Shown piece after piece: positions 8,006-57,717 of a DNA stretch of 64,000 nucleotides. The position numbers and the translations under genes are program-made. The stretch comes from a virus, in IMG/VR virus record IMGVR_UViG_3300043424_000514, positions 1-64,000 of that record; one strand, given 5' to 3'. Position 1 is the stretch's first letter; every line of letters starts with the position of its first letter. The notes below the pieces were generated by a model, which saw nothing but the letters and a program-made list of their open reading frames with translations, searched no databases and had not been told where the DNA came from.

Positions 8006-9211
8006 TCACCAAGTTAATAACCCGTCAAGTTTATTTTCCCTCGCATACCTCCGAACCCGTTCGGGGGTTATTGAAAACCAACCTTCTGCGCTGACTTTTG
8101 AGACGAGGGCTTTGTAGTGTTTATTGAGCATGGCGGGAGAGTTCCCCGCAATTTCCGCTGTCATCGCGGCGTTCCGGTGCAGAGCCAGGTGGTATGAGCA
8201 GAACGAGTGCCGCAGTGCGTTTTGTTTGGTCTCCACCCCGCAGGCTTTCAATCGAGCTTCATCGAGACTCTCGATTTTGTGTGTCGGGACGATAGGCCCT
8301 GCCTGCGGCCCGAACTCTTTCAGCCATTGCTTGAGGCACTCGGGGATGTCCAGAGTCCGCCCAGTGCGGGTTTTTGTGATTTCAGGGCCGAGGCGGATCA
8401 TTTTTTCGTCGAACAAGACATCAGCCATCGTGAGTTTTTTGTTCGAGGCTTCGGAGCGTCTTGTTCCTCCGAACGCCATCAGCGCCACATATGGCAGATA
8501 TTTTCTGTCAGTCGCGATGAAGAGGCGGCAAAGCTCCGGTGGGGTGTAGAACACCGGCGTCTCGTCGCGCAGAGCGGGAAGGTCGCAGTCGATATTGACT
8601 TTGTCCTCGGAAACAAACCGCTGTTTTCTTGCGAACCGAAGCATCGCCAAGAGCGTCCCGAACAAATTGTGCTTCGACCTCGCGTTGTATTTTGAGGCTC
8701 TCAGGAAGGCCAGGTATTCTTCGGGCGCAATCGTGTCGATGTGCCGCTTGCCGAACTCCGGCTCCCATACATTCCGGTGGTGGCGTAGCGTCTGGTAGTA
8801 ACGCTGCGAAAGTCCTCGCTCCTCGGCGCGGGCGTAGAACGCATCATAGACCTCGGAAAAACTTTTGGGATTCGCCGAAGTGTATTCGTGGAATTTCAAG
8901 TAGAACTCGACCGCGACATGGAGCGGGATTTTGCCGAGGCGTTGGCGGCACTCGTTGAAATAAACGATGTCTTCCCCGCAGAGCATCGTGGCTGCTCCGT
9001 CGCTAGTCGCGAGATGTTTCACGATTCGCTCCGCCTCTATCATAGCCGCGGCTTCTTTGTTGTAGGATTTGTTGTAGGTCTTCTTGCCTACTTTCCATTT
9101 TAGGCGGTGCGTTGTGTATCCGTTGCGAAGCAGTTTTGAGATTCTCACTACGGCGTGTCCGCAGCGCATGACCGAGTTTTTTTCGTCGATGTTTTCAATT
9201 TGGGTTTTCAT
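8006..9211 (-). CDS. int: tyrosine recombinase / integrase
   Basis: GTRRSE (R), TKTR (K), NALRHSF (HxxR-like), AGNS, KHY (Y); 401 aa. Confidence 0.9.
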   Translation of the reverse strand: MKTQIENIDEKNSVMRCGHAVVRISKLLRNGYTTHRLKWKVGKKTYNKSYNKEAAAMIEAERIVKHLATSDGAATMLCGEDIVYFNECRQRLGKIPLHVAVEFYLKFHEYTSANPKSFSEVYDAFYARAEERGLSQRYYQTLRHHRNVWEPEFGKRHIDTIAPEEYLAFLRASKYNARSKHNLFGTLLAMLRFARKQRFVSEDKVNIDCDLPALRDETPVFYTPPELCRLFIATDRKYLPYVALMAFGGTRRSEASNKKLTMADVLFDEKMIRLGPEITKTRTGRTLDIPECLKQWLKEFGPQAGPIVPTHKIESLDEARLKACGVETKQNALRHSFCSYHLALHRNAAMTAEIAGNSPAMLNKHYKALVSKVSAEGWFSITPERVRRYARENKLDGLLTW

Positions 9212-34697: not shown

Positions 34698-35789
34698 ATG
34701 GAAACCCGATCCGAACGCCAATTTCTAATTCTAGGACAGCCTAGGTCCCGCACGGCGTGGCTTGCAAATTTCCTTACGCGGGGGGATTCCATTTGCCACC
34801 ATGAACTTAGCGGTCGTGGGCTGAATGCCGCCGCCATGGCCGCAGAGATGTCGAGGGGGGCTCGGTTCGTAGGGAACTCCGACAGCGCCGCGTCGCCAAT
34901 CGTAGCAGAGTTATTGAGGCTTTTGCCTGAGCTAAAGCTAGTCGTCATCAAGCGCCCTATGGAGGAAGTTTTATCTTCCTACCAAAAAGTTGCCGGAGAA
35001 AAGCTAGAAAAACTACGGTCTTTTTTGGAAATCAACCAAAAGATTTTGGAAGGCTTGGAGCCGCAGGCGCTTGTCGTAAATTTCCACTCACTGTCTTCTG
35101 CCGAGACGGCAAAGAAAATTTGGAACCATTGTCTCGGGGGCTACATGGAATTTCCTACGGACCAGTTTGATTTGTTGCGGACTCTGAATGTGCAAATGGA
35201 GCCGCAGTTCATTCGAGGTGCTTTGAGAGGCGGTATGGAACTCCCTGGTCGCGTGGCCCCGCTTACAGAAAAAGAAACGCAGTTATTGGCACTGGTGTTA
35301 GAGGCGCACGCTAAAAGCGCCCTCCGGCAGAACATTTCTACGACCACGGTTTTGCAATGCGCGGCGGGCAACGGCACCTTGACCAATAGCATTGCGGCAG
35401 GGCTGCTAACTCTGGGCGGAACCCACGCTCCTTTAGAGCAATCCTGCGAGGTGCTGATGGCTAGTAACCCCGTCGAAGGGGCTCGGCTACTCGTTGCCGA
35501 CGGTTACAAAGTTCCTGGCTGGGGCAACTCGTTTCATCGCGGAGAGCCCGACCCGTGCTGGGCTGAAGTCGATCAATGGCTCCAAGAGAATCGCCCAGAT
35601 TTGTATGCAAAAATTCAAGCCGTCACCGATTTTCTCCGCTCAACTGGAAAGCCTGTGATGCCAAACCCTTCGACCTACACCGCAGCCGCCGCTTTGGCAC
35701 TCGGAATCCCGCCTCGTTGCGCCGCTTTTTTGTTCATTCAAGGTCGTCTTTTGGAGTGGGTTAAAATTTTTATGAGAGGAGAAATCTAA
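34698..35789 (+). CDS. sulfotransferase-like P-loop domain fused to citrate-synthase-like domain
   Basis: GQPRSRTAWLANFL..CHHE; then NIST, AAGLLTLGGTH, KVPGWGN..DP, PN, LF..GR..W. Confidence 0.7.
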   Translation: METRSERQFLILGQPRSRTAWLANFLTRGDSICHHELSGRGLNAAAMAAEMSRGARFVGNSDSAASPIVAELLRLLPELKLVVIKRPMEEVLSSYQKVAGEKLEKLRSFLEINQKILEGLEPQALVVNFHSLSSAETAKKIWNHCLGGYMEFPTDQFDLLRTLNVQMEPQFIRGALRGGMELPGRVAPLTEKETQLLALVLEAHAKSALRQNISTTTVLQCAAGNGTLTNSIAAGLLTLGGTHAPLEQSCEVLMASNPVEGARLLVADGYKVPGWGNSFHRGEPDPCWAEVDQWLQENRPDLYAKIQAVTDFLRSTGKPVMPNPSTYTAAAALALGIPPRCAAFLFIQGRLLEWVKIFMRGEI

Positions 35790-39090: not shown

Positions 39091-42000
39091 ATGATTATTC
39101 CTTACGACCAAGTTGAGGGCTATGAAAACTACACTCCAACCCTTAACGAAGAGGAAGATAAAGAAAACCTAGTCCCTATCTCCAGCGTCCCCATGAAAAT
39201 GCGGGAGGACCTTTCCCTAGGGGAGGAATTCGGGCGCGGGTTTGACCGCGGGTTGCTCCAAACCAAGGGCCTTGGCCTCGGGTTGGTGGGGGCCCTCGGC
39301 GAGGCGGCGGGGTTGGATGATGTCGAGGAGTATGGCTACACCGGAGCGCAAGAGGCGATGCAGGCTGCGTCGGCTCCTGAACTCGCAGGTGAGGTGGAGA
39401 GTATTTTCGATGTGGGGTCCCCTGGGGACTTTATGAGCTATGCCGCGGGGCTGATGGGGTCGCAGGTTCCGAACCTGGCGATCTCGGCTGTGACCGGCGG
39501 CGTGGGCGGTATGGTCGGCAAACGGGCTGTCTCCGCGGCGATCACCGAGGCTTTGGAAGCGAAGACGGCGCAACTCGTGGGCGAAGGCGTGGCGAAGGAA
39601 GTCGCCAAGCGGCAGGCGCAAGTGGCGCTCTCCCGCGAGATGGGCGTGAACATGGCTGAAAAACTTGCTGCCGAGAAAGCGGCGCAGATTGCCGCGACGA
39701 AGACGGGCATCGGCGTGGGCACGGCGGTATCCGGCGTAGGCATGGAAGTCGGCTCGATCTACTCCGAGACTCGCGATCTGGGGCTGGCTGTGAAATACGG
39801 CGTGCCTGCCGGATTGGTGGAAGGTATCGCTGACCGATACTTTGGCGGCAAGATCGTGGACGCCATCGAGGGGACGAGCGGGACGAAGGGGCTCAAAGCA
39901 GCGGGTAAAGAATTTGTAAAAGGCATCGGGGTCGAAGGCGGCGAAGAAGGCGTGCAGACCGCGCTGGAGTTGCAGGCTCTCGAAGAATCCGGCGTGGAGC
40001 CAGGGTTCGAGTTGTTCTCGAAAGAGGGTGCCAAGCGTGTCACGGAAGGCGTGGCGGCTGGCGCAGTGATGGGCGGTGGCATGGCTACAGGGGTGCAAGG
40101 CTTGAAGCTGGGCCTGACTCCGCTGACACAGCGGGCGCTACAAGATGTCGAGACGGGGCTTCCCCCAGGAACCGAGACCCCAGGAACCGAACAGCAGGAC
40201 ACGACCGACGAGGAGAAATTTTACAACTTCTCACCAGACGCGGTGACGATCGACGACGGTGACGATGACCCGATCACGGCCCGTCGTTTTACGATCGGCA
40301 CTGAGAAGGGTTGGGCAATCGACAACCCGACCGAGGAGATGCAGCGCCGACTGGTTCCCCTAGGGAACACCGGCAAAGTGGCTCTTGTGGACGGGGGTAA
40401 AGGTTACGGCGATGCGCTCAAACACATCCTCAACAACGGCGGTCGGGTTCGTAACATCGACCCCTCGATTCTGGACAACGAGATCGCGGATGATGACGGG
40501 GAGTATGTGGGCTTGTCCTCGTTCACACAGGACAACAAGCTGGCTGCGGGCACGGGGCAGCAGCAGGGGAAAGTGCAGGGCACGGACCTTGAGATCGACG
40601 CGGAGCAGCGTGCTTTCGAGGATCAGTTAATTTCAAAATACGGCCAGCTAAACAATGTGCTGAATGCTACGGAGTTGTTGGAATCCACAGGGGCGATGCC
40701 CCAGGGATCGTTCACCGGCTCTGAACGGGAGGCTTTGGGGGGAGGTCTGAATCAAGACGAGCGAAACGCGATTCTTGCGGCGGTGCCTTCAAGGGAACTG
40801 ACAAAATCCAAAGCCCAAGTGGAGCGACTGATCCGAGAAACGGAAGAAGCTGCGGCGAAAGAGGGGACGACCCCAGAGCTTGAGCGCCGGTTGAACTTCC
40901 TCGCCGATGTGCAGGGGAGGATCGCGGATTTCGAGAACCTCAAGACGATGCAGCAAACCCTAGGGCGCAAGCCGCTGGAGGGTGGAGCCGCAGGGGAATT
41001 ATCGGCAGGCGTTTCCAAGACTGACCCCGTAGAAGAAAAGCTCGCAGAGTGGAGCCGGATCGTGGAGGAGCGGGGGAAAGTCGATACCGAAATATCTTCA
41101 CTACAAAAGCTAACTGCTCCTTCTGGTGGAGGTTCTATTTTTGATGCTCTCGACGCCTACGAGATGATGCTGTCAGATAGTCAGAAAGTTTCACAAGAAA
41201 TTGCGGCGCTCAAAAAAGCAAAAGCCGACAAGAATCAAATCCAGGCGAAAATGCAGGAGCTTCGGAACATTGAGGAGTCCGCAAGGGGGTTGATTAGTGA
41301 ATCAGGCAACCAAGATTTGTTTGCAAATGAAGTTCGCAAGCAGGTTGTGGTAGAAGAAAGAAACAACTCAGCGGCTTACAAGGCATGGGACGCTTTAGTT
41401 CAGGAAGCTGACGCGCTACAAGCTGAACGGGATACTCTTGTTACTGAGGAGGACATCAAAAATTTTGACGAATCGTCAAAGGGAAAAAAACTAGAGACGA
41501 TTGCTCAAAAAATCGACAAGGCTTACGAGCAAGTAGTCCCAACAGCACGACTCGCGGAGTTTTACAAAAACGCTGCAAAAGTAGCTACTGCGAAAAGAGA
41601 TGAACAGCGTCAAGTTGACCAAGCATCTCAAGAGCAAAGACTCGCTGCGGAAAATAACTTGAAGTCCGCGACAGAGAAAAGCCGAGGACTGAACACAGAT
41701 GTCGTCTATAAAACTCCTGATGGCAACACAGTCGTTGGAACCTTGGTGCCCGACCCCGAGACGGGGCGTGCATTGGACCAAAACGGGAATCTCGTTATCG
41801 CGCCGAAATCTTTTGAAGGCAGCGACAAAAGCGATTTAGTAGATACAAGAACTCAATACGGCGACCGCTTCATCCGAGTCCCCAGGGAAAATGTCTTGAA
41901 CATTGTTCCAGACAAAACGGTGGGAGTGAAAACACAAGCGGCCAGCCAGGCAAAAGCCTTGGGCGTGGAAAACGCCGACCAGAATTCTCTGGCTCAGAAC

Positions 42001-45000
42001 GCCACGGCGATTGCGGCCAAGCTCAATGAGCAATCGGAAGCCCGAGAGAAGGAACTGGAGAACTCTTTGGAGCCTGTCTTTACGAGAGACAACAAGGGCA
42101 AGTTGGTCCCAAGCGCGGTGCGTCGCGGGGAGACTGTCGGCTTGCGTTTAGAGGGTCGTGAGGCTTTGCACAAGACGATGTATCTGCCAGACGGCACGAC
42201 GCTCGTGCCCACCAACGCGGGAATCTTCCGTGGTGTGGAGGGGGCTGGAGTGGATCAACGAGTCGTCTTCGACCGCTACTATGTCGCCAAGCCCAAAGGG
42301 GCCAAAGCGCCTACCGCTACGAACACAGTATCGCTCCCAGTGTTGCGCCCTGGGGAGACGCTCATCACGCTAAACGACCTCTCGGACGAGCAGAAAACAA
42401 GCACTGGGATAACCCGCGCCAAAGGGGGCAAATGGAGAACCAGCGAACTTGTTTCCGAGGACCTTTGGGACAACCTCTACAAAGCTCCTAAAGCTGCCGT
42501 CTTCGGAACAGCGAAGACGCCGGTGGGTGGAGTGCTTGCCCCTACTCAAAAGCCAACCCGCTCGGGGACCCGCATGACCCAGACGCCCAGCGTCGCGGAG
42601 ACGGAAAGTGGAGACTTGGAACTTCAGGATGTTTTCACTTTTGAAGGCGACCTCACCGACGCGGAAAGAATCTTGACTACCGCCCTGGGGAAATTTTCCG
42701 CTACCCCGACCCGCGAGGAATTGATCTCGGCGGGGTTCACGCCGACGAATGAGAAGGCGGAGTTCGAGGTGGCGCGTGGGAAGTATGCTCTGGAGGAGGT
42801 TCAGGATGTAACCATCAAAGACCCGCTCTCAGGGTCGGGCTTGGACATCCCCGTCAAAGCAGGGGTTTTCAAAGACTCCAAGAACCCCGACGCTCCGGCG
42901 CAAGTCAAGCTGTATGCCCAGTTCGACCTGAGCAAGGTGTATGCCGCGATGGAAGAATTGGAGGCCAAGCGCAAGGCCCCCGACACAGCGCAGAAAAACG
43001 CCAATATCGTCAGGGCCGAGCAATCCCTAGCCCGAGAGGTTCAGGACTTGCAGCGCCTCACGCTGGCTCAAATGAACATGGGCCTTGATGTTCGTGTCCG
43101 CGAAATCAATGGGGTGCCGGAGGCGCAGTTTCTTTCTGACTATGGGTTTGTCGCGTCGCGGAATGCGAGAGCTTCTGGAAATAAAGGGGCGTTCGGAAAC
43201 CACATCATCACCGAAGTCACCTACAACCCGAACCCTGATTTCAAAAAGGGGGGAGACACTTTCCGTCGAAAGGCGCAGAGCCCAAGACAGACGCAGCAAC
43301 AAGCCGCCGCAACGCTTACCAATACGACACTGCGAGGCCGCGGGTTCGACTTCAAAAAGACGGGGCTCGGGTCGGCGAATCAAATCTTAGGGAACTTCCG
43401 CCGCCAGATGCTCGACCGAGCGCAAGAGGCAAAAGAAAAAGAAGCAGAAGCAATCGAGAGTGGCTCCGACCTTGCCGCTCGGCACGCCGAGGCTTTGGTC
43501 AAGCTCACCGCGTTCACCCGCCCGATGTTTGAACGCTACGCGGTGCCAATTCGTAAACATATCGAAGAGGCCCCAGGCTCGACGCCAGAGTTCAAAGACC
43601 GTTGGCGTATGCAAACCGAACTCTTCTTGGCGCGTGAGTTGAACAAGACGCAACTGCGGGCAATGCCTGACTCTGTTGCGGCAGAGATGCAAAAACAGAT
43701 CGAGACTAAAAAACGCAATGCTGATAAAATAGAACCTGTCCGCGGGAAGCGCCGAGTTAAAAAGAAAGGCAAGAACTACGGGCAGTTGGTCGATGATCCT
43801 TACCAGTCCGAGCGTCAATTCAAAATCCGCCGCAGAGAGTGGCAACAAAAACTCGATAGCGAAATTGCGGAGATAGAAGAAAAATTCTTTCGGCAAATGC
43901 TCCCCAGGGCGACCCGCGGCAATACGGGGGTTTCTGAAGTAAATCGCCTCACGAAAGAGATCGAGGATAAGAAAACAGCAATCCGCCAAAGCGTAGCCGC
44001 CACGAAGATCAAAGAAAAGCCGAGCGCCGAAGAAATCAAAAAGCAAATCAGCGCCGACTCAGAGGTTAAAAAACTAACCGCTTCTTTTCAACAAGCTAAA
44101 GGGGACGCAGCAAAAAAGCGTTGGAAGACCAAGCTGGAAGCTAGAAAAGCGCAGATTGAAAACAACGCAATCGTCGAGCGCGACCCGACCGAGGGAGAGA
44201 TTGAGACCGAGACCCGCAATCGAGTTCAAAAAGACCAAGACATCTACAATTTGGAGCGGAAGATCGAAAAGCTCGGGGAGTTCACGACAGCGCAAGACGC
44301 GATGATTGACGAGTTCTTGGGCTTCATACAAGCCGAGGCAGAAAAAAGCGGGAACCAAAATCAAAAAGCCCTGACAGAGAACCTTCGCCGATTGCTCGCT
44401 CGCAAAGAAGAAGCCGCAAAGGGAGGTAGAAAAGTATTTATCAATGTCCGCAAAGAGGTTGAAAAATCAGAGTCTTTTGCAGACCGCCAACTGCAAAAAC
44501 AAATTAAGGCCGAAGCTAAAAAACTAGAAGCCACGGATGAAAGGGTAAAAGAACTCAAGGAAAAGCTCAAAAACGCGAAGCCTGGAAATGTTCTGCAACT
44601 AGAAAAGAAACTGCGGCTGCGAAAAGAAGCACTTCTCGAAGAAGCGGAATACCGTCTTTCCAAACAAGGGTTATTTATAGGACAAAACGACCAAAAAGCC
44701 GCCGAATCCGAAGAGCTTCTCGACTCCGCAGCTAAAGCGATGGATTCTGCACAAATCAGCGGCAACGACCGGATGTTCGAGGGTGCGGCTCAAAATTTTG
44801 CAGACCGGCAACAAGCCAATGAGGCAGAGAAGTTCTCCGACGCTGACCGAGCGATCGTCGAAGCCTTTGGCAAGATGATGGATGAGGTGAAAACCTTGAA
44901 CATCTTTGGCACCACAGGGAGGGTTAAAGGCATCTTGCGACAAGGCTTCAATGAAGCAAGCAAGTTCAAAGGAGCTATCGAGAAGCAGGAGTTCGTTGAC

Positions 45001-48000
45001 CCACAGACGGGAAAAGCTGCCGACGCGGGGAGCGACCTCGTGCAGGGAATGATCCGCGGGCAAGAAGACCCGCTGGCCTTTGAGAACTACCGCGAGCCTC
45101 GCAAGAAGGATGACGCGAAGCGGCAGGAATACCTAGAAGACCTCGCCGCCCTCAAACTCAGAGAACTCGCGAGGGAGGCAAATGACAAAACCAAAGGTGA
45201 TGTTGACCCCAATATCGTAGAACTTGCCCTCGTAAAGCTCTTTGGCGGTAAGTTTGAAGGAGAAGTTGAGGGCAACTACATCAATGAGACTTTCGAGCCA
45301 TTGGCAAAAGAATACGCCGATGTCATGGAAGACTTTTTCGCGGGCACAACCGCAAGGAAAGAACAACAAAGAATAGCTGAGATTGAAGCTGCCCGCGGCA
45401 AAGGCGAAAGGTCCACTCTGACAAAAGAAGAGTTGGAGCCGCTCAGAAAAGAATCGAGCCGCATATCGAAAATCGCCTTTGGCGTCATAGAGAATTATCT
45501 GTTCAACCCGAATACAAAACGAACCCTGTCGGGCAAGTCTTTACCGACGACTGAAAAGGTTTCTCTCGGAATCCCAGGTGCTCCCCTTGCCAGCGCCCCA
45601 GGGGCGAACGGCACTGATGTAGCCCAGAGTAATAAAAACGCAACCGCTCAACCTGACCGCAACCCGACAAGGGAAGGATCAAAAGCGGCGGTGCAATCAT
45701 TCGTGCAAGGTTATGCAGGGCTAACCGACTCCGACATGGTCGGACTTGATGATAGAGAAATCGACGCGATCTACCAAGCGGCGACCTCGAAGGCCGATGC
45801 CGACATGGCGGCTGGCGCAGTGGACTCTGTCGTAGCTGCCACCCCAGGGATGAACGCGCTCCTCGAAATGAGCGGCAAGGATTTGATGCGCGGGTATCTC
45901 AGGGAACTCGAAGCAGAGCAGACCCGTGGAGATGCCGAGACGATCCTTCGCGAGAACCTCCGCAGGGCGGCGACAACGAAGATGTTCAAGTCGAACACCG
46001 ACTTTCTGGAGTATGTCTCCAAGATGCCCCAGGGGATCAAGCGGGCGGCTGCACTTCGAGCGAAGGAATTCCTCAAGCTCAACGAGCAGCGCGGGTTCAA
46101 CTGGAACAAGATCGCTACGCAGATCGCGGCGTTCGGCAAAGACGGCAAGCAGGCCACATGGGCGGGGCTCCTAGGGACCGACATGGAAACCGGCGGGCAC
46201 GCCATCTTCCTGAACCTCGATCAGATTCACGAGGGCGACATCGTGGAGACGATGCTGGAGGAGATGGACCACGCGCTCACCCACCGGATCATCAACGCGG
46301 AAGCCTTCGGCATGAAGCTGAACTCTGTTCAGCAAAGCGCCCGTGATCGTTTGAGAACGGATTTCAAACGCGCTGTGCTGAAAGCCGGAGAAGGCATGAC
46401 CGAATTGGCCGAAGGAGCCCGTGGGTTGACGCCGGAGCAGAAGGTGGCGTTCTACTCGAACGCCTTCAAAGACATGGTGGCGGAAAGCCCCGATCAATTC
46501 CGTGCCTACTACAACCTTACGAACCTCGACGAGTTCGTGGTGGGCATCAAGAAGGACGGCAGCTTTATCGACTTGCTCAAGGAACTTGGCTTCAGTGAAA
46601 AAGCCGAGGGCGGCTTCTCGATCTCGCAGCTCCTCAAAGACATTTTCACCTCGCTGGCGGAACTCGTCACAGGGCGCAGGCTGGATGCAAACTCCGAGCT
46701 TGCCCGTGCGTTCTCCGACGCTTGGACCCTCTCCACAGGGCGCGATGCGAAGCAATGGACGGTGCCCCCGACCCAGCTATCCATGGCCCTAGGGGTCGAG
46801 GCGGCAAGCACCAGCAAAGCGACCGGCAGCAATGAAACCGTGCGGATGCGTAAGGACGGCGGCACCGCCGTTTACAACGCCTACCTGCAACAGAACGAAG
46901 ACGGGTCGTGGTCGGTCTTTGGAGAATTCGGAGACCCCACTAGGAAGCTCCAGCGTGCCGAGAAAAGCAAAGGCAAGCTCGATTACGAACAAGCCAAGGC
47001 GGTTTTCGACAAGACGGTTGAAGCCAAGTCCAAGAAATACTCGGTGATTCCTGAAGGACCAGAAGGACCTCAAGGACCAACGGGACCGAACGAAGGTCCT
47101 CAAGGCCCCCAAGGGCCACAAGGTCCACAAGGTCCCGCCGTGACTCCGCGGGCGCAGAGAACCCCAGGGGAATATGGTCGCAGCTTCCTGCCGCAATCCG
47201 CCCCAGGGCGGCGGTCGAATGTGACCAGGTTCAACGAACTCACCGCCGATCTGCAAGGGCGCAATCTTACTCAAACCGACCTCGATGCTTGGAAGAACGC
47301 TAACCCTGAGAAGTATGCAGAGCTTGAAAAAATGCGGGAGGATGCGATTAAGTCCTCGGCAAGCAATAACGGGCAAAAGGTATTCGGCCCGCTGTGGCAC
47401 ATTTCCAGTGAGACAGGACTTTCCGAAAACAGGTTTGACCCGAATAAAATAGGGAGCCAAACAGATAGCGGGTATTTAGCCAGAGGGTTTTATTTTGCCG
47501 GAAGTGAAGATGAGGCAAGAAACTCTGTCGGCCTCCAAACATCGAGGTCGGGAAAAGCATACCGAGTATTTGTAGGGTTCAAAAATCCTTTAGAAGTAAC
47601 CCTACAGTCAAATTCGGTTGGAAACTGGCAATACAACGATGCTAATAAATCAGTTATAGAACAGCTTGCAAAAATCGTAACGCCTCAAAAATGGAATGAA
47701 TTCTTAACCAAGTATAATTATAGCGCAGAAGAACTCAAAGAGCTTGGGTTAAGGCCCCCCTCCGAAATAAAAAATAGAGATTTAAGTTTCTATAATTTTT
47801 CGCTCAACGCTTACAACGAGTTGTTCAACTTTTTAGGGATAGATGGGATTGTTACTAAACTTAAAAATGGGGCTCCATTTGAAGTTGTAGGACTATCCAC
47901 AGTAAAAAACCCAACCTTCAACCCTAACCAAATCAAGTCCGCCGAGCCGCTTAACCTTGAAAACGGACGGCTCATTCCGCCGACCGAGTGGGCGCAGCCG

Positions 48001-51000
48001 GAGAATCCAAACATCCTATACTCCGCCCCAGGGCGGCGGTCGAATGTGACCAGGATGCTCCTAGGGAAAAAAGAGGGGACGACTTACACCGGCAAGAAGG
48101 TGGAGACCGGTGGCTGGTTCGCCTCCGACGCCTTGGCGACGGATGGAGTGACCGCGATGTTCGATCGCAAGACGAACCGCGAGTCCTTCGGCAAGCAGCA
48201 GGCCGAATTTTATGACAAGGCCCTGGGCAGGGCGCTGAAGAAATACGAGGGCCAGTTCAACCCCAAAGATGTCAACGACGCCCTGGGGAATATCGAAAAC
48301 CCGCTCACCGAGGCGCAGGCCAGGGAGATCGACGAACTCGTGGCGACCAACCAAGAGGCGGATGCCGCCGTGCTGAAGAACGATTACATGGAGGCTAACC
48401 GCGCCGACTTCCGCAGGCGGCAGGCCGAGGCCCGCAAGCGTCTGCCCGAGGAGGTCGTGAAGATCATCGAGGAGATGCGCGACACGGTCGATCCGCTCAG
48501 TAGCTACGCCGACGAGAAGATGGGCTTCTCGACCGCCGCCAACCAAGGAATCTACCTGAACCGCGCTTACCTGATTTTCGGGGACGAGAAGACAAGAGAG
48601 CTTCACCAAAAACAAATCCGCGAGAACCCTGTGGTGATGGAGAACCTAAAGAACTACCTCTCCCGACAACTCGCGGAGCAGGACGCCGAGGCTTTGATCC
48701 GCCGAGCCACCCGCGAAGGGCGAATCCTCCCTAGGGAAGAAGCCTTGGTCCAAGCCACCGCCAATTTGTCGCCGACAGATTTGGGCGCGGCGATCGAGCG
48801 CGTGCTCAATGCGGGGGATAAAGGAGTCGGCTCCTTGTTTGTCTCGGGGCGCATCCCTGGGCAAAAGAACCTGAAAATCTTTGATGCCCGCGGCAACATC
48901 GCCAAGGAAATCCAAGCGGCCTGGGGCGTGGTCGAAGACCCTGGCACGAACTACGCGAACACCGTCATCAAGCTCGCGAACCTGGTCGCCAACGACAAGT
49001 TCTTGCAAGAACTCAAGGCGGCGGGGCTGGAGTCGGGCACGCTCTACGACCCTAGGGACCCGAAGAACCTGAACGAGGAGGACGGGCAACGACTCGCTGA
49101 CGCCCGCTCGGCGGCTCTGGAGGCCGATCCGACACTGGCGGCGCGGTCGCGCTTCAAGCCAGAGTTGCTCGATCGGGCAATGATCGCCCAAGACCCTGTG
49201 GTGGCGAGCATCCTCGAACAGGCTGAAAGCAAAGTCCCTTCAAAATATGTAAAGCTATCCAGCGAGACGAACAAATCGTTCGCTCCCGTCTCGGGTATGT
49301 ATGCGGAGCCGCTCTTGTTCGAGTGGTTGACCACGAAGTTCCCGCCGAGGGGCGAGGAGAGTTGGTGGATGAAAGCCCTTACGCAGGCAACGCTCGTCCC
49401 TATGGCGATGAAGACCGTAGGCAGCGTGACAGGGCAATTCCGAAACTACTACTCGGGCTATATGTCGCTGCTTTCTAATAGCAACTTGAGGTTTTGGGAC
49501 CCTGAGTGGCGGGAGGATTTCAAAGCCGCGCACCGCATGACCTTCGGAGAAATCTATCGGGATGTGCGGGGAATCTCTACCGATGCCACAGCTCGCAAGG
49601 CGATGATGAAAGCCCGCGAAAGGCTTTCGGAGTTGGGAGTGACCGGCCAATCCGTGACGATGAACTTCATGCAGGACTTGGCGCGGCTGAACTCTGGCAA
49701 GGAGAACGGCATCGTCAAAGGAATCGACGGGCTGGTTCAGAAATTCATCCAGACCTACGGAGCATCGGACGACAATTTCAAAATCATCCACTACTTCAGC
49801 GAGCTTGGCAAATACCGCAGGGCGTTCCCTGATATGCCGCAGGCACAGCTTGAGGAAAAAGCCGCCGCGATCGCCCGCGGGATTCATCAAACTTACGGAG
49901 ACACTTACTCGGCGGTGAAGTCGTTGAAGAAAGTTCCGTTCATCGCGCCGTTCATCAGCTTCACCTCGGAGGTGATTCGCAATACGATTTATTCAGGGCG
50001 CTTGGCGTGGAACGAAGTCAAAGAAGGCCGTGCCACAGGGAATCGGGAACTCGAACGAATCGGGCTCCAAAGATTCGCCGGAATGAGCATTGCGGGCTTT
50101 GGCACCTTTGCATTGACGAGCATCAGCGCATCTCTTGTAGGGATCAGCGGCGAGGAGGAGCGGGAGTTCCGAAAGCTGCTGCCGGAGTGGCAGCGCAACA
50201 GCCAACTTCTTTTCACAGGGAAAGAAAACGGGAAGATTAGATTCGCTGATTTCAGTTTTAGTGACCCGCTATCGTATCTGAAAACCCCTGCGATCGCTTT
50301 TAGCAGAGAAATCTGGAGCGGCGACGAACGCTCGTTCAACGAGAAAGTCGGTAAGGGAATTCTAAACGCCATGCAAACCCTCGCGTCTCCGTTCGTCTCG
50401 GAGCAGTTGTTCTCGGGTTCTTTGATGCAGCTTTACTCGAACAAGGACGGATCAGGCAGGGAGATCGTGAACTGGCAAGACGACCCCGCCGCGATTGCAG
50501 GGGCGGTAGGAGGGCACCTAATCCAGCCATTCCTGCCAGGAACATTCGACTCCCTAGGGCGCATTGGCAAAGCCTTTACCGGCTATGTCAGCCCGAGCGG
50601 TCGCTCCTATGACAAGGGGAACGAAATTATGAGCTTCTTCGGAGCGCGTATCTCCGAGGTGGATGTGCGCCAATCCCTAGGGTTCAAGACCAAGGCGTTC
50701 ATGCAGAACTACCGCGAGGCGGCAGAACTGTTCACAGGGCCGTTCTTGTCCCGCGGCACGCAGGATAGCGAGAGCATCGTGGAAGGATACGAAAGCGCCA
50801 ACAGCGCGGTTCAGCGGTTGTTCGGAGAACTGCGGGGAATCTACCTCGGGGCGGTTCGACTCGGCGTTCCTCAACGGGAAGTCCTCTCGATCCTCAAGGC
50901 AAACGGACTTTCAGAAGAAAATCTCGCGATGCTTCGCAGCGGCAAGTTCAAGCCCTACCAAGCCAGCAAGCAGGCAATCACAAAGAACAGGGAGGCGGGG

Positions 51001-51057
51001 ATGCAAACCCGAATCTCAGACTACAACAAAGCGTATGCGGCGGCTCAAAGACCCTAA
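39091..51057 (+). CDS. giant polyvalent internal virion (ejection) protein, 3988 aa
   Basis: hydrophobic Gly-rich N-terminus, long coiled coils, zincin-like EEMDH, WGR-like domain, collagen linker, ART-like domain, LPD38-like C-terminus. Confidence 0.85.
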   Translation: MIIPYDQVEGYENYTPTLNEEEDKENLVPISSVPMKMREDLSLGEEFGRGFDRGLLQTKGLGLGLVGALGEAAGLDDVEEYGYTGAQEAMQAASAPELAGEVESIFDVGSPGDFMSYAAGLMGSQVPNLAISAVTGGVGGMVGKRAVSAAITEALEAKTAQLVGEGVAKEVAKRQAQVALSREMGVNMAEKLAAEKAAQIAATKTGIGVGTAVSGVGMEVGSIYSETRDLGLAVKYGVPAGLVEGIADRYFGGKIVDAIEGTSGTKGLKAAGKEFVKGIGVEGGEEGVQTALELQALEESGVEPGFELFSKEGAKRVTEGVAAGAVMGGGMATGVQGLKLGLTPLTQRALQDVETGLPPGTETPGTEQQDTTDEEKFYNFSPDAVTIDDGDDDPITARRFTIGTEKGWAIDNPTEEMQRRLVPLGNTGKVALVDGGKGYGDALKHILNNGGRVRNIDPSILDNEIADDDGEYVGLSSFTQDNKLAAGTGQQQGKVQGTDLEIDAEQRAFEDQLISKYGQLNNVLNATELLESTGAMPQGSFTGSEREALGGGLNQDERNAILAAVPSRELTKSKAQVERLIRETEEAAAKEGTTPELERRLNFLADVQGRIADFENLKTMQQTLGRKPLEGGAAGELSAGVSKTDPVEEKLAEWSRIVEERGKVDTEISSLQKLTAPSGGGSIFDALDAYEMMLSDSQKVSQEIAALKKAKADKNQIQAKMQELRNIEESARGLISESGNQDLFANEVRKQVVVEERNNSAAYKAWDALVQEADALQAERDTLVTEEDIKNFDESSKGKKLETIAQKIDKAYEQVVPTARLAEFYKNAAKVATAKRDEQRQVDQASQEQRLAAENNLKSATEKSRGLNTDVVYKTPDGNTVVGTLVPDPETGRALDQNGNLVIAPKSFEGSDKSDLVDTRTQYGDRFIRVPRENVLNIVPDKTVGVKTQAASQAKALGVENADQNSLAQNATAIAAKLNEQSEAREKELENSLEPVFTRDNKGKLVPSAVRRGETVGLRLEGREALHKTMYLPDGTTLVPTNAGIFRGVEGAGVDQRVVFDRYYVAKPKGAKAPTATNTVSLPVLRPGETLITLNDLSDEQKTSTGITRAKGGKWRTSELVSEDLWDNLYKAPKAAVFGTAKTPVGGVLAPTQKPTRSGTRMTQTPSVAETESGDLELQDVFTFEGDLTDAERILTTALGKFSATPTREELISAGFTPTNEKAEFEVARGKYALEEVQDVTIKDPLSGSGLDIPVKAGVFKDSKNPDAPAQVKLYAQFDLSKVYAAMEELEAKRKAPDTAQKNANIVRAEQSLAREVQDLQRLTLAQMNMGLDVRVREINGVPEAQFLSDYGFVASRNARASGNKGAFGNHIITEVTYNPNPDFKKGGDTFRRKAQSPRQTQQQAAATLTNTTLRGRGFDFKKTGLGSANQILGNFRRQMLDRAQEAKEKEAEAIESGSDLAARHAEALVKLTAFTRPMFERYAVPIRKHIEEAPGSTPEFKDRWRMQTELFLARELNKTQLRAMPDSVAAEMQKQIETKKRNADKIEPVRGKRRVKKKGKNYGQLVDDPYQSERQFKIRRREWQQKLDSEIAEIEEKFFRQMLPRATRGNTGVSEVNRLTKEIEDKKTAIRQSVAATKIKEKPSAEEIKKQISADSEVKKLTASFQQAKGDAAKKRWKTKLEARKAQIENNAIVERDPTEGEIETETRNRVQKDQDIYNLERKIEKLGEFTTAQDAMIDEFLGFIQAEAEKSGNQNQKALTENLRRLLARKEEAAKGGRKVFINVRKEVEKSESFADRQLQKQIKAEAKKLEATDERVKELKEKLKNAKPGNVLQLEKKLRLRKEALLEEAEYRLSKQGLFIGQNDQKAAESEELLDSAAKAMDSAQISGNDRMFEGAAQNFADRQQANEAEKFSDADRAIVEAFGKMMDEVKTLNIFGTTGRVKGILRQGFNEASKFKGAIEKQEFVDPQTGKAADAGSDLVQGMIRGQEDPLAFENYREPRKKDDAKRQEYLEDLAALKLRELAREANDKTKGDVDPNIVELALVKLFGGKFEGEVEGNYINETFEPLAKEYADVMEDFFAGTTARKEQQRIAEIEAARGKGERSTLTKEELEPLRKESSRISKIAFGVIENYLFNPNTKRTLSGKSLPTTEKVSLGIPGAPLASAPGANGTDVAQSNKNATAQPDRNPTREGSKAAVQSFVQGYAGLTDSDMVGLDDREIDAIYQAATSKADADMAAGAVDSVVAATPGMNALLEMSGKDLMRGYLRELEAEQTRGDAETILRENLRRAATTKMFKSNTDFLEYVSKMPQGIKRAAALRAKEFLKLNEQRGFNWNKIATQIAAFGKDGKQATWAGLLGTDMETGGHAIFLNLDQIHEGDIVETMLEEMDHALTHRIINAEAFGMKLNSVQQSARDRLRTDFKRAVLKAGEGMTELAEGARGLTPEQKVAFYSNAFKDMVAESPDQFRAYYNLTNLDEFVVGIKKDGSFIDLLKELGFSEKAEGGFSISQLLKDIFTSLAELVTGRRLDANSELARAFSDAWTLSTGRDAKQWTVPPTQLSMALGVEAASTSKATGSNETVRMRKDGGTAVYNAYLQQNEDGSWSVFGEFGDPTRKLQRAEKSKGKLDYEQAKAVFDKTVEAKSKKYSVIPEGPEGPQGPTGPNEGPQGPQGPQGPQGPAVTPRAQRTPGEYGRSFLPQSAPGRRSNVTRFNELTADLQGRNLTQTDLDAWKNANPEKYAELEKMREDAIKSSASNNGQKVFGPLWHISSETGLSENRFDPNKIGSQTDSGYLARGFYFAGSEDEARNSVGLQTSRSGKAYRVFVGFKNPLEVTLQSNSVGNWQYNDANKSVIEQLAKIVTPQKWNEFLTKYNYSAEELKELGLRPPSEIKNRDLSFYNFSLNAYNELFNFLGIDGIVTKLKNGAPFEVVGLSTVKNPTFNPNQIKSAEPLNLENGRLIPPTEWAQPENPNILYSAPGRRSNVTRMLLGKKEGTTYTGKKVETGGWFASDALATDGVTAMFDRKTNRESFGKQQAEFYDKALGRALKKYEGQFNPKDVNDALGNIENPLTEAQAREIDELVATNQEADAAVLKNDYMEANRADFRRRQAEARKRLPEEVVKIIEEMRDTVDPLSSYADEKMGFSTAANQGIYLNRAYLIFGDEKTRELHQKQIRENPVVMENLKNYLSRQLAEQDAEALIRRATREGRILPREEALVQATANLSPTDLGAAIERVLNAGDKGVGSLFVSGRIPGQKNLKIFDARGNIAKEIQAAWGVVEDPGTNYANTVIKLANLVANDKFLQELKAAGLESGTLYDPRDPKNLNEEDGQRLADARSAALEADPTLAARSRFKPELLDRAMIAQDPVVASILEQAESKVPSKYVKLSSETNKSFAPVSGMYAEPLLFEWLTTKFPPRGEESWWMKALTQATLVPMAMKTVGSVTGQFRNYYSGYMSLLSNSNLRFWDPEWREDFKAAHRMTFGEIYRDVRGISTDATARKAMMKARERLSELGVTGQSVTMNFMQDLARLNSGKENGIVKGIDGLVQKFIQTYGASDDNFKIIHYFSELGKYRRAFPDMPQAQLEEKAAAIARGIHQTYGDTYSAVKSLKKVPFIAPFISFTSEVIRNTIYSGRLAWNEVKEGRATGNRELERIGLQRFAGMSIAGFGTFALTSISASLVGISGEEEREFRKLLPEWQRNSQLLFTGKENGKIRFADFSFSDPLSYLKTPAIAFSREIWSGDERSFNEKVGKGILNAMQTLASPFVSEQLFSGSLMQLYSNKDGSGREIVNWQDDPAAIAGAVGGHLIQPFLPGTFDSLGRIGKAFTGYVSPSGRSYDKGNEIMSFFGARISEVDVRQSLGFKTKAFMQNYREAAELFTGPFLSRGTQDSESIVEGYESANSAVQRLFGELRGIYLGAVRLGVPQREVLSILKANGLSEENLAMLRSGKFKPYQASKQAITKNREAGMQTRISDYNKAYAAAQRP
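47197..48054 (+). repeat. 33-bp perfect direct repeat flanking ART-like domain
   Basis: TCCGCCCCAGGGCGGCGGTCGAATGTGACCAGG at 47197-47229 and 48022-48054. Confidence 0.95.
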
Positions 51058-51259: not shown

Positions 51260-51302
51260 TTCTTAATTGAACGATCAGGGGGTTCAGGTGTCTAATACCC
51301 CC

Positions 51303-51764
51303 ATGAAAAAACTTGCTTTGATTCTTGGGCTCTTGGCTGCACCTGCTCTCCATGCGGACGATGACGCGGTGGCGACGGCGGTGAACGGAAACACCTTCTT
51401 CTCCAGCGGAGAGTCGGCAACGACTGTGGGAAAGAATACTTTTTTCTCGGACGGGGAGAGCGCCACGACAGTCGGGAAGAACACTTTTTATTCGGATGGC
51501 GAGACAGCCACGGTAGTCGGGAAGAATACCTTTTATTCGGACGGGGTGACTGCGACAACCGTGGGAAAGAATACTTTTTATTCGGACGGCACGGTGGCGA
51601 CTCAAGTGGGCAAGAACACCTTCGTCGATAGCGACGATGAGGAGGGGGCCGAGCGGGCGCTCAAGGCGGTGGCGATCCCGAGCGCGATCGAGTCCAATGA
51701 GGATTCATACAAAGGATACGAGGGGTTCAAGGGATACGAGGGTTATTCCTACGACGAAGAGTAA
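51303..51764 (+). CDS. secreted tandem-repeat protein
   Basis: signal peptide MKKLALILGLLAAPALHA; six 15-16-aa repeats ATTVGKNTFYSDG. Confidence 0.8.
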   Translation: MKKLALILGLLAAPALHADDDAVATAVNGNTFFSSGESATTVGKNTFFSDGESATTVGKNTFYSDGETATVVGKNTFYSDGVTATTVGKNTFYSDGTVATQVGKNTFVDSDDEEGAERALKAVAIPSAIESNEDSYKGYEGFKGYEGYSYDEE

Positions 51765-52020
51765 AAGACGGCAGGGACGAGTTCGCGACCTCTTTTCAGG
51801 TGTGGGCTTTCGGGAGTCTAGGGTGCTCATGCACCGCCCATCCCGCCATGTTCCTTCACGCCGCAAGGACGGAGAGGGATTACGCTGGCCGTAAATTAAA
51901 CACCTGCCTGCCGAAAAATATAGGGGGTGCCGCCCTTCCGTGGTTAGAGGTTCTGCGGGCGGCTTGCAGTATAGAAAGCGGGGTAACATGAAAGACACAA
52001 AACCCCCTCCCTCAAGACAC

Positions 52021-56295: not shown

Positions 56296-57717
56296 TTACT
56301 TGGCGGACGGGCCGAACGCTTTGGCGAGGGCTTCGTTCACCTTCTTGACTTGCTCGGTTTCGGGCAGGCCCTCGATCGTCTCGGCGACCCAGATGTTCAT
56401 ACCCAGCAGGCGCAGGGATGTCGGGACATCGGCCTCGTCGATCGCATACAGCAATGCTTCGGAGAGGATGCGAGTGGTGGGGCGCACCTCGATGAAGCTA
56501 TCGGCGGCAAGCACGCCGCACTCTTTCCAGAAGGCGATGATCTTATCGACCACGGCGGGGGTGAACCCTTTCGCCTTGGCCGCAGCCGACAGGACAGCAC
56601 GCAGCTTGGCCTCCTCGACCTCGACATGGACGATGACGAAGCGTTCTTTGCCAGCAGGGCAGTCGGCATTGACATCGAACTTCGCGCCGACATTGGTGGT
56701 GGCGGCGACGGCGAGGTTCTCCTTGGGGCACAGGATTTCCTCGGTGCTCTCGACGCCGGTGACGGGATCGACAATCGGGCGACCCGTGTTGAGTGCGTAG
56801 TAGAGCTTGCCGTCGATCTCACGGGCGCTGAACGGGGTCAGCAACGACTGGCGGGCGGCACCTTGGGCGCGGTAGATTTCGTCAAGCAGAACGAATACCT
56901 TCTTGCCCGCGGCGGCGAGTCGCCATGCACGGGTGAGCGGGCCGTCCACCCAATCGGTCTTGGCTGTGCCGAAGCCGAACATATCCGACGGCATCGTCTC
57001 AGGCTGGAAGCCGAACTCGATGTAGGCATCGAACTTCTTGCCCCATGCACGAGCGCCGTAGGTCTTGCCACTGCCCTGCCCGCCCTTGATGAGCACCGGC
57101 TTGAGGGCGGCACCAGGCTGGCAGAATCTCTCGAAGCACAGGGTTGTCGTGTCTTCGCTTGTCGGCGCAGTTGTGATCCCTAGGACAGGGGCAATCACGG
57201 CGGTAACGGCGGAGTTGCCCCGCTCGATGGCGTCTTTGACGAGGTCGGTCAACTCGTCGAGCTTGTTGTTGCGCTTTGCCAGCGAGTCGGACATGACGCG
57301 GTGCCCTTCCTTCAAAGCCTCGATGTCGGGGAGCAGGGTCGGAGGTAGCTCCACTGCGGCAGGCGAGTGCGCCTTCATCTCCACGCGGACCGAGAGTTCG
57401 TCGATTGCTTCAGCGAAGGTGGTGCTGGCCGACTCGATGCGGGAGGTCAACTCGTCAAGCTGCGGTTGCACTGCGGCCTTGAGGGCGGCGGCAAGCAAGG
57501 CGGTCTCTCCCCCTGTGGGCGAGGTAGGGGCTGACGCGCCGAAGGTGCGGGCCTTGGCCTCGTCGCCTGTGATCTCCCCCTTGAGGTAGGCTTTGAGGAT
57601 TCCGCTATTGGCGGTGCTCACCCAAGTTCCGGTGGCGGTGGCTTTCACAGCCTTGCGGGCTTCGGTGTAGCCGAGGGCGTCGATTTGTGCGGTGGTGAGT
57701 GTCGTTAGCTTTGTCAT
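56296..57717 (-). CDS. MoxR/CbbQ/CobS-like AAA+ ATPase
   Basis: GGQGSGKT, WVDGPL, LLDEIYR, ATTN, ERF. Confidence 0.88.
   Translation of the reverse strand: MTKLTTLTTAQIDALGYTEARKAVKATATGTWVSTANSGILKAYLKGEITGDEAKARTFGASAPTSPTGGETALLAAALKAAVQPQLDELTSRIESASTTFAEAIDELSVRVEMKAHSPAAVELPPTLLPDIEALKEGHRVMSDSLAKRNNKLDELTDLVKDAIERGNSAVTAVIAPVLGITTAPTSEDTTTLCFERFCQPGAALKPVLIKGGQGSGKTYGARAWGKKFDAYIEFGFQPETMPSDMFGFGTAKTDWVDGPLTRAWRLAAAGKKVFVLLDEIYRAQGAARQSLLTPFSAREIDGKLYYALNTGRPIVDPVTGVESTEEILCPKENLAVAATTNVGAKFDVNADCPAGKERFVIVHVEVEEAKLRAVLSAAAKAKGFTPAVVDKIIAFWKECGVLAADSFIEVRPTTRILSEALLYAIDEADVPTSLRLLGMNIWVAETIEGLPETEQVKKVNEALAKAFGPSAK

Follow-up and report, generated by a model that had tools for sequence, protein, structure and literature searches.

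A variable in-frame slot holding a predicted ADP-ribosyltransferase module in a giant polyvalent-type phage protein

Introduction

ADP-ribosyltransferase (ART) modules are already known in phage polyvalent proteins from the sections of the literature drawn on here (PMC5512222; PMC9503650), which place them in the Tox-ART-HYD2 clade, with the prototype in the virion RNA polymerase of Roseovarius Plymouth podovirus 1 (PMC5512222). In the same source a zincin-like metallopeptidase for self-processing is described as common, though not universal, among polyvalent proteins (Iyer et al. 2017, PMC5512222). Here we analyse a putative module of this kind in a 64,000-nucleotide (nt) stretch of virus DNA, hereafter the window, comprising bases 1–64000 of the 72,870-bp IMG/VR record IMGVR_UViG_3300043424_000514, rated complete by CheckV. 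The module lies between two identical 33-nt repeats inside a giant open reading frame (ORF), P0001 (39091–51057, + strand), which encodes a polyvalent-type virion protein of 3988 amino acids (aa) as judged by homology to phrog_22602 and phi18:3 gp123, and it occupies a slot whose content varies between homologues.

The window module resembles polyvalent-protein ARTs in its PF18760 match, its His/Tyr/Asp site, its setting in a very large phage protein and its tail of the QIKSA...DIRY type. Unlike the prototype, P0001 has no detectable zincin motif, and a PDB sequence search with the whole protein gave zero matches and thus lends no support to an N4-type polymerase. A further difference from the published polyvalent ARTs, as far as the sections of PMC5512222 drawn on here describe them, is that the window module is present in some and absent from other alleles that are nearly identical. 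Another described system is Alt of phage T4, a head-packaged, injected ART of the R-S-E clade (PMC5512222). By analogy, Alt is a plausible functional model for the window ART, which would likewise be delivered with the DNA and modify host proteins early; Alt is, however, a separate gene product, whereas the window ART, a candidate for injection, is a slot module of a giant protein.

The polymorphic toxins of the CdiA-CT/Rhs type combine a conserved boundary motif with exchangeable toxin tips. As in those loci, a short conserved junction appears to mark effector swaps by recombination, and the ancestry of the module differs from that of its carrier; in contrast to them, the window slot lies inside the protein with a boundary at either end, and there are no orphan cassettes (the 33-mer occurs only twice in the genome). 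An immunity gene next to the slot was likewise not noticed, although none was searched for. Polymorphic toxin loci were raised as an analogy for polyvalent proteins before, and in the sections consulted a kinase system is the only one for which variability of cassettes through recombination is considered possible (PMC5512222). The slot units also resemble integron cassettes in being repeat-bounded, present, absent or possibly stacked, and faster in turnover than their platform, but they are in-frame protein modules rather than genes, with junctions conserved as peptide. An integron cassette with an attC-like hairpin was considered and rejected (fold z −0.70; no adjacent integrase, the sole integrase-like gene lying at 8006–9211).

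Head-packaged ARTs and polyvalent proteins are thus known from comparative genomics, and changes in domain sets have so far been left as 'architectural diversity'. The present locus offers a natural series at one site, comprising empty alleles, ARTs of two subtypes, LPD37 and unknown-type modules between near-identical flanks and standard junctions. We found no published description of such an allelic series at one in-frame slot, though the supplementary architecture files of PMC5512222 may list related cases.

Results and discussion

The repeats and the module between them

The 33-mer TCCGCCCCAGGGCGGCGGTCGAATGTGACCAGG is present at 47197–47229 and 48022–48054 (+ strand) as 100% identical copies with starts 825 nt (275 codons) apart, and these are its only two copies in the window and in the whole record with up to 3 mismatches allowed; none of 100 shuffles contained any match. 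Both copies are in frame within P0001 and translate to SAPGRRSNVTR, at residues 2703 and 2978. Repeat search and ORF translation therefore confirm an earlier note on this DNA, made from the letters alone, which had reported identical in-frame 33-mers encoding this peptide. The AT-richer interior mentioned there is equally evident, as GC content drops from about 0.60 to 0.36–0.46 across approximately 47300–47950. Compared with a value of 0.65 for the gene as a whole, GC at third codon positions (GC3) amounts to 0.55 over the first 40 codons of the module's N-terminal linker, 0.41 over a core of 190 codons and 0.71 over the tail. The core is the lowest-GC3 stretch of the giant gene, though not the sole low one, residues ~676–900 and 1726–1850 having values of 0.44–0.45.

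The slot is preceded by a collagen-like Gly-Pro-X run (residues 2654–2682; 47050–47136, +), which draws many unrelated collagen-like contigs in read comparison and collagen-repeat proteins in homology search. Between this run and the left repeat lies an extra segment, VTPRAQRTPGEYGRSFLPQ (47139–47196, +), with one CCCCAGGG octamer inside, where empty alleles show Pro-Glu (GCCAGAA). The left repeat, read as an 11-residue inter-module spacer, is followed by the N-linker of the module (42 aa, FNELTADLQGR...AIKS; 47230–47355, +), the AT-rich ART-PolyVal catalytic core (191 aa; 47356–47928, +) with its predicted site residues His (47398–47400), Tyr (47491–47493) and Asp (47842–47844), and a C-tail of 31 aa, QIKSAEPLNLENGRL...NPNILY, which is the standard ART-PolyVal module end (47929–48021, +). 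The right repeat is the sole copy in empty alleles, and beyond it a conserved C-terminal module, MLLGKKEGTTYTG... (48055–51054, +), shares 97–99% identity among the closest relatives.

The earlier note had likened the peptide pattern of the insert to phage polyvalent ARTs, and the 286-aa insert scanned alone does match Pfam PF18760 (ART-PolyVal) with 33.9 bits, above the gathering cut-off of 31.2. The window insert was aligned with two homologous inserts plus nine further short proteins (182–590 aa) among the hits. This alignment shows no variation at His57, Phe69, Gly86, Phe89, Pro120 and Ile235 and almost none at Asp70, Asp205 and the QIKSA tail; Tyr88 adjoins the invariant Phe89. An AlphaFold model of the module (pLDDT 76.4, pTM 0.79) places His57 in strand 50–59, Tyr88 in strand 86–90 and Asp205 just ahead of the fifth strand, 206–210. 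The three residues are thus in or at strands 1, 2 and 5, the strands given for the His, Tyr and Asp of polyvalent-protein ARTs, respectively, in the part of PMC5512222 used here. Structure prediction, which had been proposed as a check, gave moderate matches to ART-type folds: in a VIA alignment of the model all 50 of 50 rows are PARP, ART or ParT chains, with Z scores of 5.7–6.6, which the tool grades as middling. On sequence and model we accept the insert as a complete ART-PolyVal module with an H-Y-D site, that is, as a predicted enzyme.

Two other leads on the insert were set aside. The top Foldseek row (E 1.8e-3, TM 0.26), which is a chain of the cyanophage A4 pre-ejectosome, was treated as weak, and the text of PMC12002296, the paper behind that chain, does not contain 'ADP-ribosyl'. 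An intein or homing element was rejected because the insert holds ART-PolyVal only, with no HINT or endonuclease domain, and ends in ...NILY rather than His-Asn.

Slot content across homologues and alleles

A search with residues 2300–3500 of P0001 returned 20 proteins, of which 16 have both slot anchors (P0002–P0017) and form the census; P0018, with weak anchors, and P0019–P0021, with none, stand outside it. The slot is empty in seven of the 16 (P0002, P0004, P0005, P0011, P0012, P0014, P0016), holds an ART in four (P0006–P0009), an LPD37-type insert of 550–590 aa in three (P0010, Pfam-tested, and P0013 and P0017, by precomputed label), an unknown-type insert of 276 aa in one (P0003) and a helical insert in another (P0015). 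A search aimed at shorter fragments (13 hits) added P0093, which is empty, and P0092, a second allele of the P0003 insert at 60% identity; ten others of the 13 were P0095, located upstream of the slot, and nine non-family proteins, of which eight or more are collagen-repeat proteins. The 276-aa insert matched no Pfam family, the atlas leads for its P0092 copy were all below 0.9, and its model from a two-row alignment had a pLDDT of 46.5.

These homologues include both kinds of allele that the earlier note had suggested looking for, namely proteins with one repeat and no insert (P0002, P0004, P0005, P0093) and alleles with another domain at the same point (P0003, P0092, L003, P0010, P0013, P0017, P0015), so the family does not carry one and the same domain throughout. 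A junction regular expression matched once at the slot in each empty allele and twice, bracketing the insert, in nine of ten filled alleles including the window, the left copy in P0010 being a variant. The idea of a payload slot for injected effectors accordingly stands in respect of variable content (empty, ART, LPD37, other inserts), while the word 'injected' depends on distant virion-protein homology. Outside the census, residues ~2900–3345 of P0018 show two apparent inserts in a row, ~270 aa of unknown type and then a P0015-type helical insert beginning at ...GPKSLSRAMAS.

The polymorphism is also seen in DNA. Locus L002, a metagenome contig, is 96.7% identical to the window up to 47126 and 96.6% identical from 48022. 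These two matching parts are separated by 10 nt, and L002 contains the 33-mer once; because its slot region is identical to P0004, L002 does not count as an independent allele. Empty alleles were present in two further studies, where a 9,990-nt contig (run X7) and a 5,380-nt contig (run X10) join 47138 or 47126 to 48022 and 47210–48019 has no cover except for the joining contigs. Locus L003 carries a fourth kind of insert, ending in ...NPSPQ, on the same spacer, and a homology search with its fragment returned P0092 only. An 807-nt contig of run X5 links the end of an L003-type insert, by way of the repeat, to the ART module (24 differences in 755 nt), which hints at a two-module array. In run X1, the probable source run, the insert contig has a depth of 26 and the flank contigs 36.1 and 39.3, a difference that could reflect genomes without the insert, but contig depths are not comparable in this way and were not used as evidence. 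No relatives beyond the window's own record were found in IMG/VR by single-protein, family-alignment and 27-mer searches, and none of the giant gene as a prophage in species genomes; a search of GenBank phage DNA gave collagen-like matches only.

Turnover and discordant ancestry of the module

A tree of the C-terminal module resolves four clades at 100/100 support, and slot states are mixed in each of them. Placing the seven slot states on this tree requires 10 changes, compared with a mean of 9.6 for shuffled states, so slot content is scattered like random labels; the 'empty' state alone requires at least three changes on well-supported branches. The left flanks of P0008 (ART) and P0011 (empty) are identical over 454 aa.

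The ancestry of the catalytic core is discordant with that of its carriers. Among 1.84 billion cluster representatives, a search with the insert returned one protein at E ≤ 1e-30, P0006, which is 90% identical over the insert and only ~51% identical to P0001 overall. By segment, P0001 and P0006 share 65% identity in the left flank, 86% in the N-linker, 97% (185/191) in the ART core, 84% in the C-tail and 56% in the right flank. The comparison with P0008 is of the opposite kind for the core (left flank 66%, N-linker 86%, ART core 48%, C-tail 31/31, right flank 59%), and P0006 and P0009 share 98% of the left flank and 92% of the right but 33% of the core (N-linker 86%, C-tail 90%). The segment comparison indicates a recent transfer of the AT-rich core between diverged carriers, with breakpoints in the conserved linker and tail and not in the repeats, and this fits the GC3 profile (linker 0.55, core 0.41, tail 0.71).

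Both conserved segments recur widely. The N-linker is found in 40 of 69 other hit proteins, and in 31 of 33 rows starting at linker position 1–2 an Arg directly precedes its first residue (Phe, or Trp in one row; manual count), a typical junction being DTAR|FNELT and that of the window NVTR|FNELT. The C-tail has 73 matches in 60 of the 69, mostly ending in a DIR[YF]-type motif, and four short proteins terminate at this motif or within two residues of it. Since linker start and tail end recur in so many other proteins, the sequence between them, the 33-mer, is read as encoding an 11-residue spacer between the end of one module and the start of the next. Spacers have diverged in P0006 (SLAGARANTQR and SLAGARTKVSK), whereas those of the window are identical at the nucleotide level, which implies a recent event.

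The giant carrier protein

The C-terminal 600 aa of P0001 match phrog_22602, 'virion structural protein' (E 4e-24), and tblastn with the C-terminal module recovers gp123 of Cellulophaga phage phi18:3 (23% identity, E 2e-30), labelled a virion protein from MS/MS proteomics in its own record, as well as a protein of Pseudoalteromonas phage vB_Pun_Y3 annotated as an ADP-ribosyltransferase. Packaging of P0001 in the virion is plausible given the homology to phrog_22602 and phi18:3 gp123, and ejection would presumably follow. A polyvalent-type architecture, meaning a very large protein with several unrelated effector or LPD domains, is apparent from the 3988 aa and ART-PolyVal module of P0001 together with its homologues, whose slot can hold LPD37 and whose C-terminal part gives a weak LPD38 match.

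Three other features of the protein were noted. A motif EEMDHALTH..I..E at residues 2390–2404 (~46258–46302) occurs in 17 of 17 family members with eight invariant positions and a nearly invariant His2398, and could be metal-binding or catalytic. Just upstream of the slot, residues ~2601–2653 (46891–47049) align with a part of P0018 that matches Pfam WGR (28.7 bits, cut-off 22), while P0001 itself has no WGR match at E ≤ 1 in the Pfam scan; WGR is a domain of PARP-type enzymes. Finally, residues ~601–900 and 1801–2250 (~40891–41790 and 44491–45840) have 47–70% identity among close relatives that are otherwise 90–100% identical, and these diverged stretches, which overlap other low-GC3 stretches, may be further exchanged segments.

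Proposed mechanism and alternative explanations

We consider it probable that P0001 carries a standard ART-PolyVal module in a variable in-frame slot, and that such modules are traded between co-infecting relatives by recombination at short conserved junctions. On this reading the 825-nt unit is one whole module, made up of N-linker, H-Y-D ADP-ribosyltransferase core and 'DIRY-type' tail, and placed between the collagen-like run and the conserved C-terminal module. Empty alleles possess one spacer and filled alleles a spacer on each side of the module, and modules would be gained, lost or replaced through recombination at these junctions, which would keep every product in frame. Spacers would serve the exchange of whole modules by way of their homology, and the conserved linker and tail the exchange of catalytic cores; the protein, once packaged and ejected, would use its ART to modify a host target with NAD+. 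The comparisons above establish that the slot is polymorphic, that the core differs in ancestry from its carriers and that the insert belongs to the ART family, whereas the use of spacer homology, the packaging and ejection of the protein and the action on the host are inferred.

A broader proposal, which we advance tentatively, is that polyvalent virion proteins are built from plug-in modules that start with ...[DN][TV]xR followed by FNELT..., end in ...DIR[YF] and are separated by a short spacer, an in-frame, protein-level counterpart of integron cassettes. If it holds, candidate ejected effectors could be removed from a single slot, inserted, swapped or stacked by phage populations over very short evolutionary times. 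Spacers might then double as sites at which modules are cut apart after entry, and the genome-wide CCCYAGGG motif may participate. The allelic series includes a dated-looking transfer of one catalytic core, and with it one could test what junction sequence is enough for exchange, whether the spacers are points of module release and what effects modules have on the host. It may also offer a natural design rule for placing in-frame payloads in a virion protein of laboratory phages.

Several observations weigh against the proposed exchange of ART modules by junction recombination. The duplicated junction in other clades spans only 4–6 residues, too short for ordinary homologous recombination, which suggests either microhomology events or selection on the peptide rather than the DNA. 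Exchange of the AT-rich core, moreover, took place in the conserved linker and tail, which lie within the interval bounded by the repeats, and not at the repeats themselves. The known empty alleles read GPAPE before the spacer where the window has 19 residues (VTPRAQ...SFLPQ), so they are not simple products of repeat-to-repeat deletion. The exact 825-nt deletion product was not observed; as it creates no new 31-mer, contigs built from 31-mers could not reveal it. The array in run X5 depends on a single contig of low depth (6.5). As to the enzyme, a scan of the whole 3988-aa protein gives ART-PolyVal 25.8 bits, under the cut-off, and structural matches are modest, since VIA Z scores are below 8, a middling grade, and Foldseek has no match at E ≤ 0.001, its listed rows being mostly ART folds. 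The location in the virion depends on 23% identity to a proteomics-annotated protein, and P0001 has no HExxH or HxxEH motif able to process it and no Pfam peptidase match.

The most serious competitor, though in our judgement an unlikely one, treats the spacer chiefly as a functional peptide, such as a processing site freeing each module. Its duplication would follow from the need of each module for one, the nucleotide identity of the two copies would reflect no more than a recent duplication, and any recombination there would be incidental. A junction peptide that is conserved in clades with differing copies, as in P0006, speaks for this, as does the recurrence of the Arg-then-aromatic junction in unrelated giant proteins, and polyvalent proteins have been proposed to be processed into functional units (PMC5512222, in the sections used here). 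P0001, however, lacks a peptidase domain or HExxH motif of its own, and a peptide function alone leaves unexplained both the empty alleles and a core of 97% identity within flanks of 56–65%. A peptide role for the spacer and exchange at the junctions are compatible, as neither excludes the other.

Much less likely still is that a dedicated nuclease or recombinase drives exchange by recognising the enriched CCCYAGGG motif present in each repeat. The earlier note had pointed to an octamer, CCCCAGGG, in each repeat, and copies do stand at 47201 and 48026, with one more at 47162. Together with CCCTAGGG it makes up the two commonest 8-mers of the window, with 35 copies of CCCCAGGG/CCCTGGGG (2.78 expected) and 25 of CCCTAGGG (0.61 expected), octamer sites including 1859, 4906, 46787, 48729 and 49050; copies in the giant ORF fall in all three frames, which points to a signal at the DNA level, and the genome also has a tyrosine-integrase-like gene at 8006–9211. 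That gene, however, is 38 kb distant and has the look of a normal phage integrase, folding of the repeat region is no better than that of shuffles (z −0.70), with no unusual hairpin, and the core was exchanged at a motif-free linker and tail. What makes a motif-directed enzyme unlikely is that clades with SLAGAR spacers, which cannot encode CCCCAGGG there, show the same slot turnover. We give least credence to the insert being a chimera of the assembly, or else a selfish insertion of transposon or intein type that duplicated 33 nt of its target. The base composition of the insert is indeed foreign, and 31-mer contigs of run X1 break at the 33-nt repeat, but four homologues, each assembled independently, carry the same module at that position, the frame is kept, and the length of the duplication varies between clades. 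Moreover, the 825 nt encode neither a transposase nor an endonuclease or HINT domain and end in ...ILY rather than the His-Asn of inteins.

Other features of the genome

Downstream of the giant gene, an ORF contains four tandem 45-nt units that are 70–100% alike (51390–51622), and the region 51260–51900 is much shorter in L002 (4624–4757), a second length polymorphism. Most ORFs neighbouring the giant gene matched no PHROG or Pfam family. The integrase-like gene mentioned above (8006–9211, − strand), an ORF of 401 aa, matches phrog_1 integrase (E 5e-20), and this match suggests a temperate phage. Two further ORFs, unexpectedly, look metabolic. One at 34698–35789 (+) matches the C-terminal domain of citrate synthase (30.9 bits, cut-off 27) and a PHROG labelled 'hydrolase', and the other at 56296–57717 (−) has a weak match to a 'porphyrin biosynthesis' PHROG.

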